DNA of 64,000 nucleotides. Origin: Candidatus Hydrothermarchaeum profundi (lineage in GTDB: Archaea > Hydrothermarchaeota > Hydrothermarchaeia > Hydrothermarchaeales > Hydrothermarchaeaceae). The DNA is taken from the NCBI GenBank assembly GCA_002011125.2, contig MTMF02000009.1, positions 1,160,989-1,224,988 on the forward strand, written 5' to 3'. The position numbers and the translations under genes were made by a program. Below the pieces are notes generated by a model. It was given only the letters and a program-made list of their open reading frames with translations, searched no databases and was not told where the DNA came from. Shown piece after piece: positions 10,620 to 15,536 of the stretch; position 1 is the first letter of the stretch; each line of letters begins with the position of its first letter.

Positions 10620-11906
10620 ATGGAATTTTCGAGACCTAGAGGTACTAGAGATTTTTTGCCGGAGGAGACTTCTAAGAGAAGGTGGGTTGAAAATATAATT
10701 AGAGATACATTTGAGAGATATGGTTATAAAGAAGTCCAGACTCCTACTTTTGAGCACTTAGAGCTAATAACAGCCAAATCTGGAGATGAGATAAGGGCGC
10801 ACTTATATCACTTCAAAGATAAATCTAATCGGGATATTGCATTAAGGCCGGAATTTACTGCGCCTGTGATGAGATTATACGTTAATGAATTACAGTCTAG
10901 ACCTAAGCCATTGAAATTATACTATTTTGGCAACTGTTTTAGATATGAAAGACCTCAGTCAGGCAGATTTAGAGAATTTTGGCAGGCAGGAGTAGAGTTG
11001 ATAGGTTCAGGGTATCCTGAAGCAGAAGCAGAGGTTATCGCTCTGACGGTTGAAACCTTGAAAAAGCTTGGATTGCAAGAGTTTGAAACTCATATAGGTC
11101 ACATAGGAGTACTGCGGAAGGTGCTTAAAAAAAGTGGAGTCGAAGAAAATGATCAAAATCTTGTTCTGGGCCTTATAGATAAGGGTGAGATAGAGGAATT
11201 GAAGAACGTTCTTGATGAACTGAGACTAAAAGAAAAGGATAAGCAACTTATTTTTAATCTGCTTAATTTGGTGGGGAGGAACGAGGTAATTTTGAAAGCT
11301 GAAACTCTTCTTAGAGGTAATATTGATGCGTTGAAAGAGCTGGAAAGGCTTAGAGAAGTTCTGAGATGGCTGAAAGAATTTGGTGTAAGTGATTATCATG
11401 TTAATTTTGGGATTGCTAGAGGATTAGATTATTATACTGGTGTAGTCTTTGAGATATACTCAAAGAAGCTAAAAGCCCAAAAACAAATTTGCGGTGGAGG
11501 CAGCTATTCTCTGGCGGAGGTATTTGGTGGCGAAAAAGTAGCTACATGTGGATTTGCGTTTGGTTTCGATAGAGTCGTTCTGGCACTAGAGGCGGAGGGG
11601 GTAGATCTGGGTGCAAAAGCAAAAAAAGAGTTCCTAGTAGTAATGACGGGAGAGAGTCTTCTTCCTAAAGCGATTGAAATAGCTAGCATGATACGCAATA
11701 GGTTTCCCTGCCATGTTGATTTAATGCGGCGGCGGCTTGGTAAGGCTTTAGCTTATGCCAATAGCATCGGCATACCTTTCGTAGTTATCGTAGGTGAGGA
11801 AGAGTTGAAAGAAGATAAAGTCATACTCAGAGACATGAAGACAGGATCTCAAAAAGAAGTTTCTATTAAAAACATAGAAAAAGATATTTTGAAAGTGATA
11901 GAATGA
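10620..11906 (+). CDS. hisS: Histidyl-tRNA synthetase
   Basis: RPRGTRDF, LRPEFTA, FRYERPQSGRFREFWQAG, RGLDYYTG, GGG; C-terminal anticodon-binding domain. Confidence 0.96.
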   Translation: MEFSRPRGTRDFLPEETSKRRWVENIIRDTFERYGYKEVQTPTFEHLELITAKSGDEIRAHLYHFKDKSNRDIALRPEFTAPVMRLYVNELQSRPKPLKLYYFGNCFRYERPQSGRFREFWQAGVELIGSGYPEAEAEVIALTVETLKKLGLQEFETHIGHIGVLRKVLKKSGVEENDQNLVLGLIDKGEIEELKNVLDELRLKEKDKQLIFNLLNLVGRNEVILKAETLLRGNIDALKELERLREVLRWLKEFGVSDYHVNFGIARGLDYYTGVVFEIYSKKLKAQKQICGGGSYSLAEVFGGEKVATCGFAFGFDRVVLALEAEGVDLGAKAKKEFLVVMTGESLLPKAIEIASMIRNRFPCHVDLMRRRLGKALAYANSIGIPFVVIVGEEELKEDKVILRDMKTGSQKEVSIKNIEKDILKVIE

Positions 11907-12295
11907 AAAATATTATTGAAGAAGTAAATTTTAGGATAAAGCGAGACGGGGAGGACTTGGCTATAGCTGTTGCACAAGATTTTAAGACCAATGAAGTTCT
12001 TATGGTGGCGTTCATTAATGCTGAGGCATTAGAAAAAACATTGAGAACCGGAAAAATGCATTATTTCAGTACTTCTAGGAAAAAAATCTGGTTAAAAGGT
12101 GAAAGTTCGAGACATTATCAACTGGTAAGGGAGATATTGATCGACTGCGATGGCGATGCCTTACTTTTTAAGGTTGATCAACAAGATGCTGCATGCCACG
12201 AGGGATACTACTCTTGTTTTTTTAGGAAAATCGAAAATGGTCAGATTAAGGTGGTTGGAAAGAGAATTTTTGACCCAAAAGATGTTTACGGATAA
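11903..12295 (+). CDS. hisI: Phosphoribosyl-AMP cyclohydrolase
   Basis: WLKGESS, DCDGDALL, ACHEGYYSCF. Confidence 0.95.
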   Translation: MKNIIEEVNFRIKRDGEDLAIAVAQDFKTNEVLMVAFINAEALEKTLRTGKMHYFSTSRKKIWLKGESSRHYQLVREILIDCDGDALLFKVDQQDAACHEGYYSCFFRKIENGQIKVVGKRIFDPKDVYG

Positions 12296-12331: not shown

Positions 12332-14134
12332 ATGTTGAATAATATGAAAATAATTATACCAGACACTTCGGTGATAATAGATGGAAGGATCACTCAATTA
12401 GTTAAAAGGAAAGAATACAGGGGATGTAAGGTTTTAATTTCTGAGGCAGTAGTAGCCGAATTAGAGAATCAAGCAAATAAGGGAAAAGAGAGCGGGTTTA
12501 AGGGATTAGAGGAGCTTGTAAGGCTGAGGGATTACTCTAAGGAGGGTATTATTGAACTAGAACACGTAGGGAGGAGACCAAGGATTTCAGAGTTCAAAGA
12601 CATAGACGACATCATAAGAAATACGGCTAAGGAGGCAGATGGTCTATTAGTCACAAGTGATAGAATCCAGGCCAGAGTTAGCGAGACTAAAGGGATTAAT
12701 GTTCTTTATCTTAGGAAAAAAAGGGTAAAAAAGGAACTTCGTATATTAAAATACTTCGATCACGACACTATGTCAGTTCATCTGCGTGATAAAGTAGTGC
12801 CTATGGCAAAAAGAGGTAAGCCAGGGAATATAAAACTGGTAAAGCTGTCTGATAAGCCCTTAAAAGAAAGGGAGCTAGTAAAAATCGCGAGAGAGATTAT
12901 TGAGTATGCTAGAGTTGACCCTGACAGTTTTATTGAAATAGAAAGGAAAGGCGCAACCGTAGTACAGCTTAAGCAGATTAGGATCGCTATAGCTAGACCT
13001 CCTTTCGCTGATGGCTTTGAGATCACTGCCGTTAGACCTATTGCAGATGTCAAGTTAGATGACTATAAACTCTCTGAGAGACTTTTAAATAGACTTAAAG
13101 AAAGCGCAGAAGGAATATTTGTAGCAGGTCCTCCCGGTGCTGGAAAGTCAACTTTCTCGCAGGCATTAGCTGAGTTCTACAAGAATCAAGGTAAAATAGT
13201 GAAAACAATGGAGTCGCCTAGAGATTTAGTGGTATCGGATGAAATTACCCAATACGGTCCATTGGAAGGGGAGATGGAGAAAACAGCAGATATCCTCTTG
13301 CTAGTTAGACCGGACTACACAATCTACGATGAGGTAAGAAAAACCAATGACTTCCGGATTTTTGCAGATATGCGATTAGCTGGGGTTGGCATGGTAGGAG
13401 TAACCCATGCAAATAAGGGCATAGACGCAATACAAAGGCTAATAGGTAGAGTAGAACTTGGAATGATACCCCAGATAGTAGATACGGTTATCTTCATCAA
13501 AGACGGCAGGATAGAAAAAGTGTATAAAGTAATGTTCACAGTTAAAGTTCCAGCGGGAATGATGGAGGCAGATCTAGCAAGACCCGTAATAGAAGTTAGA
13601 GATTTTGAAACAGACATAGCTGAATATGAAATATACACATTTGGCGAAGAGACCGTGGTTATGCCTGTTGGAAAGGAGGAGAGGACTGTTACAGAAAAAC
13701 TCGCCGCTGAGAGGGTTTATCAAGAGATCAAGAAGTATGCTCGGAATGCGCGTATAGACGTAGAGGTAACAGGATCAAGTGCAATTGTTTGGATAGATGA
13801 TAAATATATCCCTAAAATTATTGGTAGGCAGGGGAAAAAAATTGAGAAGATAGAAAGGGCTTTAGGCATTGGCATAGATATACGGCCTCTTGAAAATAAA
13901 TCCGAAAGGGAAGAAGTAATCAAAATAACGTTAGAAGAGACAGATAAGTATGTGCACCTGATTGCCGGACCTGAATATGCTGGAAAAATGGTTGAGATTT
14001 ATAAAGATGGAGAATACCTTTTTACTGCTACAATAGGTAGAAAAGGCGAGTTAAAGGTAGCCAAAAATTCTGATTTTGGTAGAGAGCTAATAGATGCTAG
14101 GGAGATCACTGCGAAATCAATTCGAAAGGTTTAA
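12332..14134 (+). CDS. PIN-domain ATPase with KH domains (PINA family)
   Basis: PIN motif PDTSVIIDG, Walker A GPPGAGKST, YDEVR, KH motif IIGRQG. Confidence 0.9.
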   Translation: MLNNMKIIIPDTSVIIDGRITQLVKRKEYRGCKVLISEAVVAELENQANKGKESGFKGLEELVRLRDYSKEGIIELEHVGRRPRISEFKDIDDIIRNTAKEADGLLVTSDRIQARVSETKGINVLYLRKKRVKKELRILKYFDHDTMSVHLRDKVVPMAKRGKPGNIKLVKLSDKPLKERELVKIAREIIEYARVDPDSFIEIERKGATVVQLKQIRIAIARPPFADGFEITAVRPIADVKLDDYKLSERLLNRLKESAEGIFVAGPPGAGKSTFSQALAEFYKNQGKIVKTMESPRDLVVSDEITQYGPLEGEMEKTADILLLVRPDYTIYDEVRKTNDFRIFADMRLAGVGMVGVTHANKGIDAIQRLIGRVELGMIPQIVDTVIFIKDGRIEKVYKVMFTVKVPAGMMEADLARPVIEVRDFETDIAEYEIYTFGEETVVMPVGKEERTVTEKLAAERVYQEIKKYARNARIDVEVTGSSAIVWIDDKYIPKIIGRQGKKIEKIERALGIGIDIRPLENKSEREEVIKITLEETDKYVHLIAGPEYAGKMVEIYKDGEYLFTATIGRKGELKVAKNSDFGRELIDAREITAKSIRKV

Positions 14135-14151
14135 TAGTAGGGAATAGAATA

Positions 14152-14230
14152 AGGCACCAGGAGGCCTGAGCGAGGAGGTAGGAGATTGTTTTTTAGAAAT
14201 AGGGAGGTGATCTCAAACCTCCTAGTGCCT
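14152..14230 (-). ncRNA. Candidate hairpin small RNA with anti-Shine-Dalgarno loop
   Basis: 19-bp stem (14152-14170 / 14212-14230) whose three imperfections are all G-U pairs on the minus strand; loop contains AUCACCUCCC and CUCCUACCUCCUC; TTTAAG box about 25 nt upstream. Confidence 0.55.
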
Positions 14231-14276
14231 CATTTCCGTAAAAAAGGAATAACGACTTAAATGATTTGTGCATAAA

Positions 14277-15536
14277 TTAAGCACAACTGCTTTTGGGGGT
14301 ATTAGTACGCAATTCTCTTACTAGGGGCTTGCTTATATGGCGCATTGCTCTTGGAGGGACTTGGTAAATCCTTTCCTCTAGTTCTCGGGGATATTTTACT
14401 CTCACTTTATCGCCTTTAAATGTCTTACAAATTCTGCATCGAAATCCTTGATTCTTACCCGCTGATTCCATACGTCTTCCACATTCGCATAGGGGATTCT
14501 CTTCCCTATACATCTCAGCTAGCTTCATAACATGGATCTTTTCGAGATTAATAGTTTTTTTAGGATCAGATCTTACGCCACCGTATACTCTCACTTTATC
14601 GCCTGGAACAAGTTTCTTGACTATATGCCTAAACTCTTTTGTTGGCTCGTATGCAGCGCATTCAATGGAATCACTTCCGTCAGTTACTGTGAATATTACG
14701 TGTCCTCCTTTTATGACTCTTGGGAGGGAGTTAACTTCCCCCTCTAGGATGACAGAGGAGTAGGGCTTGATATCACTGATTCTTTTGACGTTTATTAAAT
14801 GCGCGTCTGTCCCCTGATTTGTTTCATAGATTATTTTTCTTTCTATTCGCTCTCCAAGTTTAATCATGTTAAAAGCTCTTTTAAGAGTTTCAGGATCTTC
14901 TCCACGAATACCGAAAAGTACGGGGCAGGGTGAGTGTGGCGCTATTAATATGCGTTCATTATCTACGTTATTAAAGGTTAGGGGGAAGGTTCTCTCATTC
15001 ATTTTGAATACTGATTTTTTATCGATTTTTCTTTCTTTTCCCCAATTTTTCTTTTCTCGGTAGGCTATTAGCTCATAAGTTTTATCTTTAAAAATACTTC
15101 CGATAGATGCAAGAGCACCGATGATCCCTCTACCTTTTTTAAATTTACATATTTCTGCTCCATAGCTTATGGCGAGATTTTCAGCTTCATCTATAGTAAC
15201 GACTTCATGAAGACATTTTTCATAAAATCTAGAAAATTCTTCTGGAACTTTATCTCCCTGATAAAATACTACCCCTGGATGGGTGTTACTGTCGTCTATT
15301 TCTGCATATTCCTCTACCGTTTCGAGTACTAAGTTTTCCACTCCTTTAGGCTTCTTTCTCATCTCCAGGCAAATTCCGGCGTTTCCTCTAGTCTTCCACC
15401 TAATATTTGGGTTAAGTCTTACTAGTTTTGGTTTAATTGATGTGTACCGCGACAATTCATCCGCAAGGAGAGCCCCTAAATATGTAGTGCACATTCCCTT
15501 TTTGGAGTCCGTGTCATCTATCCCTACGTAGAACAT
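14277..15536 (-). CDS. tiaS: tRNA(Ile2) 2-agmatinylcytidine synthetase
   Basis: GIDDTDS..GMCTTY, LVRLNPNI.WKTRGN, TNQGTDAH, CAAYEPTK, Zn ribbon CECG...CRIC. Confidence 0.95.
   Translation of the reverse strand: MFYVGIDDTDSKKGMCTTYLGALLADELSRYTSIKPKLVRLNPNIRWKTRGNAGICLEMRKKPKGVENLVLETVEEYAEIDDSNTHPGVVFYQGDKVPEEFSRFYEKCLHEVVTIDEAENLAISYGAEICKFKKGRGIIGALASIGSIFKDKTYELIAYREKKNWGKERKIDKKSVFKMNERTFPLTFNNVDNERILIAPHSPCPVLFGIRGEDPETLKRAFNMIKLGERIERKIIYETNQGTDAHLINVKRISDIKPYSSVILEGEVNSLPRVIKGGHVIFTVTDGSDSIECAAYEPTKEFRHIVKKLVPGDKVRVYGGVRSDPKKTINLEKIHVMKLAEMYREENPLCECGRRMESAGKNQGFRCRICKTFKGDKVRVKYPRELEERIYQVPPRAMRHISKPLVRELRTNTPKSSCA

Follow-up and report, generated by a model that had tools for sequence, protein, structure and literature searches.

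To our knowledge, the mode of action is known for few archaeal regulatory small RNAs (sRNAs), and no such RNA has been described from the small uncultured phylum Hydrothermarchaeota. Regulatory RNAs with loops complementary to the Shine-Dalgarno (SD) sequence are a known kind; in Staphylococcus aureus, single-stranded C-rich loops seed on the SD regions of several mRNAs. In Methanosarcina mazei, the excerpts of PMC5867862 used here describe sRNA41 and loop 2 of sRNA154 as carrying loops directed against ribosome-binding sites (RBSs), proposed to mask the RBSs of their targets. For Alphaproteobacteria, excerpts of PMC4615179 describe the cuckoo RNAs (CcsR1-4, RSs0680 and alpha-r14), whose C-rich, anti-SD-like loops are proposed to pair with RBSs, and cite the C-rich (UCCC) loops of S. 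aureus RNAIII and the Rsa sRNAs. Here we describe a candidate sRNA gene of this kind in Candidatus Hydrothermarchaeum profundi. It lies in a window of 64,000 nucleotides (nt), which is the whole stretch analysed (contig MTMF02000009.1, positions 1,160,989 to 1,224,988); positions below are those of the window unless a contig is named. Between the convergent genes PINA and tiaS, an earlier note on this DNA had pointed out a 19-bp inverted repeat with a 41-nt loop, and its coordinates and letters are right.

The two arms of this core repeat are at 14152-14170 and 14212-14230. According to folding and a hairpin scan, they are part of a longer minus-strand stem of 23 contiguous base pairs, in which the 5′ arm (AAUGAGGCACUAGGAGGUUUGAG, 14212-14234) pairs with the 3′ arm (14148-14170); the latter is followed by U-rich letters of the UUAUUCUAUU type, without a clean U-run. 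As had been claimed, each of the three mismatches of the core (14158/14224, 14165/14217 and 14166/14216) is C.A on the plus strand but G.U on the other. The extended stem adds a fourth G.U at 14151/14231. In a minus-strand RNA all four non-Watson-Crick pairs would be G.U, and in a plus-strand RNA C.A, an asymmetry that points to the minus strand, as the earlier note had proposed. The minus strand folds into a single hairpin of -39.5 kcal/mol (z -5.6), equaled by none of 200 shuffles, and a 93-nt unit reaches z -6.3. The plus strand, with z of -2.6 and -3.1 (93-nt unit), prefers a different, internally paired fold. We scanned the whole 2.19-Mb assembly on both strands for contiguous stems of Watson-Crick and G.U pairs of at least 14 bp with loops of up to 60 nt. 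Among the 310 hairpins obtained, most of which fall in coding sequence, the 23-bp stem is the longest, and its energy ranks third. Since long hairpins are this rare and mostly coding, they are not a routine gene-end signal in this archaeon. The hairpin is a real, unusually strong structure.

How does it compare with the described systems? Its likeness to the M. mazei RNAs is functional only. As the excerpts present them, those RNAs are likewise archaeal and intergenic with anti-RBS letters in a loop, but they have several loops and experimentally defined targets, whereas here a single 23-bp stem closes a 41-nt loop with two tracts. The RNA described here also comes from another phylum and belongs to a group of sibling loci. 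The cuckoo RNAs are likewise paralogous, with anti-SD-like loops and widely varying stems. In the excerpted text, however, they are bacterial and made of 2-4 adjacent short hairpins (24-50 nt, loops of 9-27 nt), each with CCUCCUCCC; the present group has one long hairpin per gene, a loop of 30-60 nt, an archaeal promoter with a B recognition element (BRE) and TATA box, and a CACCUCC-type motif. Our locus itself has a single hairpin and lacks CCUCCUCCC. RNAIII and the Rsa sRNAs share the seed principle, but their organisms, sequences and architectures are unrelated.

Established RNA classes do not account for the locus either. The Rfam check proposed in the earlier note matched no family: with E up to 10, nothing at the locus rose above its gathering score, and the best of four sub-threshold matches reached 16.9 bits, where the gathering score is 47. 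The same scan of five sibling loci returned nothing relevant except a tRNA beside one of them. A C/D box sRNA would be expected to carry UGAUGA, which we did not find by eye on either strand of 14135-14276; the sole C/D-box match in Rfam (DdR2, 16.5 bits against 80) is within the PINA coding sequence at 14004-14074, off the hairpin. As for H/ACA sRNAs, the stem is continuous without an internal pocket, and no ACA follows 3′ on either strand. Nor does the hairpin have the form of an intrinsic terminator: the stem is followed by CAUUUCC on the plus strand and by UUAUUCUAUU on the minus strand, with no direct U-run, and the T6 of the plus strand is inside the loop. Literature searches, in which the phylum name was not a search term, found no description of this RNA family. 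Anti-SD loops are a known feature of regulatory RNAs; this sibling family is absent from Rfam.

The open loop (14171-14211, 41 nt) is predicted to be unpaired on the minus strand only. It opens with AUCACCUCC; adding the G that closes the stem yields GAUCACCUCC, which is the 3′ end of the genome's own 16S rRNA (GATCACCTCC, located at the end of contig C9). Nine of these 16S-tail letters are within the loop, and the closing G makes ten. The first anti-SD tract, at 14197-14212, consists of GAUCACCUCC (14212-14203; 10 of 10 letters of the 16S 3′ end) followed by CUAUUU. The loop also holds a second CUCCUACCUCCU tract, in anti-SD tract 2 (UCUCCUACCUCCUCG, 14171-14185). Between the tracts is a variable middle (14186-14196) with a plus-strand T6 at 14189-14194, possibly a stop signal for PINA. 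The loop is 68% pyrimidine, and its eight anti-SD-like pentamers are the highest number among 4106 hairpins scanned. The earlier note had equated the loop motif with the anti-SD of 16S rRNA. The identity with the genome's own 16S 3′ end stands, but the word alone is at chance frequency: the bare 10-mer GATCACCTCC has six copies on both strands of the genome against about four expected by arithmetic, and therefore is not significant by itself. The six copies include the rRNA itself and a CRISPR spacer. The organism uses SD sites: in 47 of 106 cases, a start codon and an open reading frame (ORF) of at least 60 amino acids come after GGAGGTGA, compared to 4-8% for control words.

Some observations on the same word were made in passing. 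Contig C1 (2638 bases) has a CRISPR array around positions 2095 and 369; its repeat is 37 nt long, and two of its spacers hold ATCACCTCC-type words, which explains some of the genome-wide matches to the 16S-tail word. The 16S gene is split across contig ends, with its 5′ 705 positions at the end of C8 (C8:134282-134981) and its 3′ part at the end of C9 (about C9:1917000-1917200), followed by a spacer tRNA-Ala.

Upstream of the hairpin on the minus strand we found a BRE/TATA-like promoter at 14254-14271, composed of GCACAAATCA (14271-14262) and TTTAAGTC (14261-14254); the TTTAAG box that the earlier note had reported at 14261-14256 is there. The first T of TTTAAGTC is 31 nt upstream of the base of the core stem at 14230. 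From this TATA spacing, transcription is predicted to start in the region 14231-14234. A minus-strand T6 (14240-14245), 32 nt past the stop of tiaS, separates the TATA box from the predicted start. T-run termination is established in archaea, and this T6 is likely the termination signal of tiaS. The promoter reads ACAAATCA-TTTAAGTC-GTTA, 31 nt before the stem, and at the sibling locus C9:1348397 it reads ACAAAAATTG-TTTAAGTC-ATTA, 32 nt before the stem. The box is therefore shared in register with a paralogue, and ACAAA precedes TTTAAGTC[G/A]TTA at both loci. Other siblings have TTTTATAT or TTATAAAT 31-32 nt upstream. The tRNA promoters of the same genome resemble those of the hairpin loci.

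The siblings came from the hairpin scan, a stem-end pattern and inspection of context, which together led to further intergenic hairpins of the same build. By the strand of their pyrimidine-rich loop, C9:1348397-1348475, C9:1348603-1348682 and C9:1788851-1788929 are on the plus strand, and C9:1487836-1487923 and C9:495266-495337 are on the minus strand. C8:95792-95870 (minus strand) was added later, and C9:734793 and C9:92642 are weaker candidates. Including our locus, the group has at least seven promoter-driven hairpin loci, or nine candidates with the two weaker ones. Four of the sibling 5′ arms start with AGGCAA[A/T]GG, and the arm at our locus starts with AGGCACUAGG. The sibling loops, of 30-60 nt, are C/U-rich with words of the CACCUCC/CCUCCU type. 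By eye, seven of the nine candidates have an A-rich BRE and a TATA octamer whose first T is 30-32 nt before the stem. A U-run (at least 4 U within about 20 nt of the 3′ arm) was seen by eye in four of seven siblings; our locus has only UUAUUCUAUU. Sibling loci adjoin unrelated genes. Since our locus, C9:495266 and C9:1348397 have no co-directional gene 3′ of them, these hairpins are not 5′ leaders. On the plus strand, C9:1348397-1348475 and 1348603-1348682 (locus L051) form a tandem pair of siblings with 127 nt between them and a separate TATA box for each; a convergent tRNA-Asn gene follows the pair. A promoter-preceded 15-bp hairpin with ACCUCC in its loop, C9:707231-707287 (+), may be another sibling. 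C3:18612 was rejected as a member on context.

We built a covariance model, R1, from four siblings, leaving our own locus out. When all siblings were aligned with MAFFT, the alignments proved structurally inconsistent and were kept out of model building; R1 alignment A4, which mixed both strands, was also left out. With filters off, R1 gives the minus strand of our locus 29.3 bits (E 6e-9 in 2.5 kb) and the plus strand 11.6 bits. A model that had not seen the locus thus favors the minus strand. Two more loci outside the training set reach 21.0 and 19.1 bits. Of the 14 stem pairs in the four-sequence alignment, 4 have changed in both partners; 98.2% of the cells pair, and sliding the partner lowers this to 41-60%. 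Across the nine hairpins, the promoter strand has eight G.U pairs, and there are no pairs of the opposite kind. We then considered promoters and loops together. A TATA octamer at -35 to -27 precedes 34 of 4105 hairpins with stems of at least 11 bp; pyrimidine-rich loops with at least three anti-SD-like pentamers occur in 6 of these 34 and in 50 of the 4071 others. In the mirror control, purine-rich loops occur in 2 of 34 (p 0.18). At least eight consecutive 16S-tail letters are in the loop of four of the nine members, compared to 6 of 4097 other hairpin loops. By these sequence comparisons, our hairpin is a member of a diverged paralogous group of putative long-stem hairpin RNAs with at least seven loci.

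Relatives were compared next to this group. The phylum set has 38 species-level genomes (37 besides our own), and its members are distant, with coding DNA 64-72% identical; in the relatives in which both PINA and tiaS were matched (G006, G008 and G036), the two genes are on separate contigs. Run X4 holds a 2509-nt contig of a divergent metagenome relative. Compared over 13400-15000 at an 80% threshold, it aligns to 14005-14074 and 14121-14230, and the rest, including most of both hairpin flanks, falls below the threshold. Its differences over 14121-14230 amount to 7 substitutions and 5 indel events; the indels and the majority of the substitutions cluster in the middle of the loop (14186-14196), and the unchanged parts are 14153-14165, 14171-14185 (tract 2) and 14197-14230 (tract 1 and the right arm). 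The loop conservation that the earlier note had called for is therefore found: both anti-SD tracts are intact in X4, and the flanks are less conserved. Two of the stem substitutions keep pairing on the minus strand, where 14166 C>T turns a G.U into A-U and 14170 G>A turns a C-G into U.G; both give mismatches on the plus strand.

The metagenome loci L038 and L039 carry the PINA nearest to ours (66.7% identical), with a hairpin of 9+5 bp 23 nt past the PINA stop. The minus-strand loop of this hairpin starts with (GGGAU)CACCUCC, and GAUCACCUCC is on its 5′ side. On the same strand, TTTATATA is found some 40 nt ahead of the stem, so that a start would fall about 10 nt before the stem; a U5 comes after the stem. 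L009, the PINA locus of a phylum relative, has GAGG[A/T]GGTAG and GGAGATTG in common with our element. Within the phylum, none of 12 PINA loci of relatives has a similar downstream hairpin or GGAGGTGATC, and a loop-architecture pattern matched our own genome alone among 35 genomes of the order and 38 of the phylum. In the 37 other genomes, R1 gave ten weak matches (19-25 bits), in ten genomes, nine of which were rejected as members on context. The remaining one, in G027, has a stem starting AGGCC, a C-rich loop and ACAAAGTTTATCC upstream. An exact-pattern search of genome contigs matched 15 loci (14 in unrelated bacterial metagenome-assembled genomes and one in Cenarchaeum), which we judged to be chance or another element, and the same scan of metagenome contigs gave no match. 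Four matches of GGCAAWGG...CCWTTGCC in other genomes were judged to be chance in coding-like sequence, from context in G007 and from the matched letters in the other three. Separately, another PINA relative (metagenome locus L045, 54% identity) has GGAGGTGACC within a different 10-bp hairpin (GGTGACCACA/TGTGGTCACC), 30-80 nt past the PINA stop, and this hairpin precedes a co-directional gene.

The reading we favor, with somewhat better than even confidence, is an independent minus-strand sRNA gene of about 85-95 nt, whose anti-SD loop would make it a trans-acting repressor of translation. That the hairpin represents a non-coding RNA gene on the minus strand at all is, judging from the letters, most likely. 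A minus-strand RNA is supported by the preference of R1, the shared promoter spacing, the G.U asymmetry and the conservation of the tracts in X4. For transcription, RNA ends and targets, we infer the following course. The BRE/TATA promoter (14271-14254) would start transcription at about 14231-14234, and the RNA would fold into one 23-bp stem, with its four G.U pairs, closing a 41-nt single-stranded pyrimidine-rich loop. The loop would present two anti-SD tracts, the first being a 10/10 copy of the organism's own 16S tail, and could pair with RBSs of the GGAGG(UGAUC) type and block binding of the 30S subunit. If abundant, such an RNA, with its CACCUCC-type tracts kept single-stranded on a very stable stem, could in this manner keep 30S off SD sites. 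It may mask many RBSs or serve as a decoy of the 16S tail, the roles put forward in the earlier note.

Several results weigh against this reading. TTTAAG is only modest as a TATA box. The 3′ arm is followed by UUAUUCUAUU instead of a clean U-run, and the transcript may therefore extend antisense into the 3′ end of PINA. The independent RNA of about 80 nt proposed in the earlier note is accordingly supported in part: the model, promoter, G.U pairs and conservation favor a minus-strand gene, but no clear terminator follows the stem. Our locus was absent from a filtered whole-genome search with R1 and came up with filters off only, so the match is real but not strong, and part of the score comes from a generic hairpin with AGGCA...UGCCU ends. 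The Fisher p of 5e-6 for the excess of pyrimidine-rich anti-SD loops behind TATA octamers is too good, because the octamer list was partly drawn from the siblings. In X4, the change 14152 A>G at the base of the stem fits the plus strand, and the 30 letters available upstream of the stem contain no TATA box and have only GTCGTTA in common with our locus; the expected box would start just outside them. R1 gives the L038 hairpin 7.5-8 bits on both strands, which is no recognition, and the L038/L039 hairpin is thus analogous and possibly homologous, not a demonstrated member. Only one of the ten weak phylum matches resembles a member by its context.

The targets are a further weak point. The earlier note had proposed target prediction. 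Scored by duplex energy against 4737 candidate start regions, the loop did no better than 10 shuffled loops, and no specific or global target emerged. Exact loop matches of 11-15 nt fall on ordinary RBSs or A/T-rich words; in one example, 13 nt of tract 2 match the RBS and start of a dehydrogenase-like gene (C9:459010). We therefore name no target.

The main rival is a passive 3′-end hairpin between convergent genes that would terminate or stabilize PINA mRNA, tiaS read-through or both, with the SD and anti-SD words a by-product of a stem rich in GGAGG/CCUCC. Its position 13 nt past the PINA stop, the plus-strand T6 in the loop, its presence after PINA in X4 and L038/L039 as well, and the chance frequency of the 10-mer all suit such a role, and in L038 an A5 and a T4AAT5 enclose the hairpin in the manner of a two-way terminator. 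But long hairpins are too scarce in this genome (310 on both strands, mostly coding) to be its usual 3′ signal. A PINA mRNA would carry the plus-strand stem, which has four C.A mismatches and folds otherwise; X4 conserves the loop tracts as well as the stem; the minus strand is favored by the family model, by the promoter shared with a sibling and by the asymmetry of the G.U pairs; and the hairpin is missing from the 12 PINA loci of the phylum. We consider this rival unlikely. A cis-acting partner of PINA is less probable still, and we give it a small chance. It would be a minus-strand RNA complementary to the 3′ untranslated region (UTR) of PINA, or a plus-strand element of that 3′ UTR, controlling the stability or translation of PINA mRNA instead of acting in trans on many genes. 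In its favor, the hairpin remains behind PINA in three lineages (our own, X4 and L038/L039). The block conserved in X4, 14121-14230, continues from the PINA stop region, and antisense overlap is likely given the missing clean terminator. Against it, siblings adjoin unrelated genes, none of the 12 phylum relatives keeps a hairpin after PINA, and the conserved parts of the loop are anti-SD tracts, presumably without a partner in the start region of PINA.

Two further readings have very little left in their favor. The earlier note had stated that no ORF follows the GGAGG motifs on the plus strand, which does not strictly hold: a 24-codon ORF with a TTG start (14186-14260) begins 7 nt past the GGAGG at 14174-14178, an ideal spacing, and could be served by it. 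L038 also has an AGGAG-led ORF, of 15 codons with an ATG start, which as read holds the same GAG GTG ATC letters in frame. However, X4 deletes the TTG, its changes at 14186-14196 as read put a stop in frame, the peptide has no conserved length or end, and all strand evidence is on the minus strand. A mobile or repeated element of the type of a miniature inverted-repeat transposable element (MITE) might be suspected, as several hairpins of the genome have related stem ends. A search with blastn-short over the 2.19 Mb found only our locus, with next matches of at most 18 nt, and the siblings are diverged in stem and loop, have their own promoters and lack flanking direct repeats. The search for more copies that the earlier note had proposed thus ended in a single copy whose diverged siblings are genes, not repeats. 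A chance palindrome is opposed by the shuffles, 0 of 200 of which fold as well. Both the small ORF and the MITE-like or chance origin are close to excluded.

A different or additional function for the favored minus-strand RNA is suggested by the stable stem that runs directly into the 16S tail. PhNob1 cleaves hairpin RNAs that carry the D-site in their loop, according to the excerpts of PMC3326319, which also cite Jia et al. 2010 for binding of aDim2p to a 16S 3′-end fragment. With a stable stem that runs straight into GAUCACCUCC, the RNA resembles helix 45 with its tail and the engineered substrates of Nob1. The identity with the 16S tail ends after 10 letters, however, where CUAUUU stands here and UGUGCA in the rRNA precursor. 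By analogy, the RNA could mimic helix 45 plus the 16S tail and D-site and be read by a Nob1-type PIN nuclease, by KH domains of the aDim2p type or by PINA, which unites PIN and KH domains and keeps the hairpin at its 3′ end in three lineages. We regard this as a long shot. If it were true, the sibling RNAs would form a small decoy or titration system that ties ribosome maturation or PINA activity to RNA levels.

The genes around the hairpin were examined with Pfam, which confirmed the convergent neighbors named in the earlier note. PINA (12332-14134, plus strand) has PIN, T2SSE-type ATPase and KH domains and ends with a stop codon 13 nt short of the hairpin base; according to the abstract of PMC6061704, PINA acts in Holliday-junction and fork processing. 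The upstream neighbor tiaS (14277-15536, minus strand), on the same strand as the RNA, has FLD, TCKD, OB and zinc-ribbon domains. The genes hisS (10620-11906), PRA-CH (hisI-type, 11903-12295) and PINA follow head to tail on the plus strand, and the overlap of 4 bases between hisS and PRA-CH together with the tight packing suggests one transcription unit with PINA. At L009 and L010, in two phylum relatives, a conserved protein of about 50-56 amino acids (MK[KR]E[IL].G...LVYNLFDG...) is encoded directly 3′ of PINA. Our genome has its copy at C9:1498955-1499125, 324 kb from PINA, with its own promoter and SD site. We had considered the hairpin as the decayed start of this small gene and dropped the idea, as the gene is intact elsewhere with its own, unlike upstream region. 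Elsewhere in the genome, ARAGORN called a tRNA-Pyl at C9:1321583, with a clear TATA box upstream, which hints at pyrrolysine use. Pairs of identical gene-start regions on C9 (C9:1475577-1475645 and 1858458-1858526; C9:1841414 and 1843053) indicate recent gene duplications.

The linkage to PINA, a protein with PIN and KH domains, has been kept and is an unexplained extra. The sibling RNA genes are recognizable from sequence alone, by their promoter, long stem and open loop that copies the 16S tail. As candidate regulators, they offer concrete ground for testing whether anti-SD RNAs control translation in an archaeon that clearly uses SD sites.

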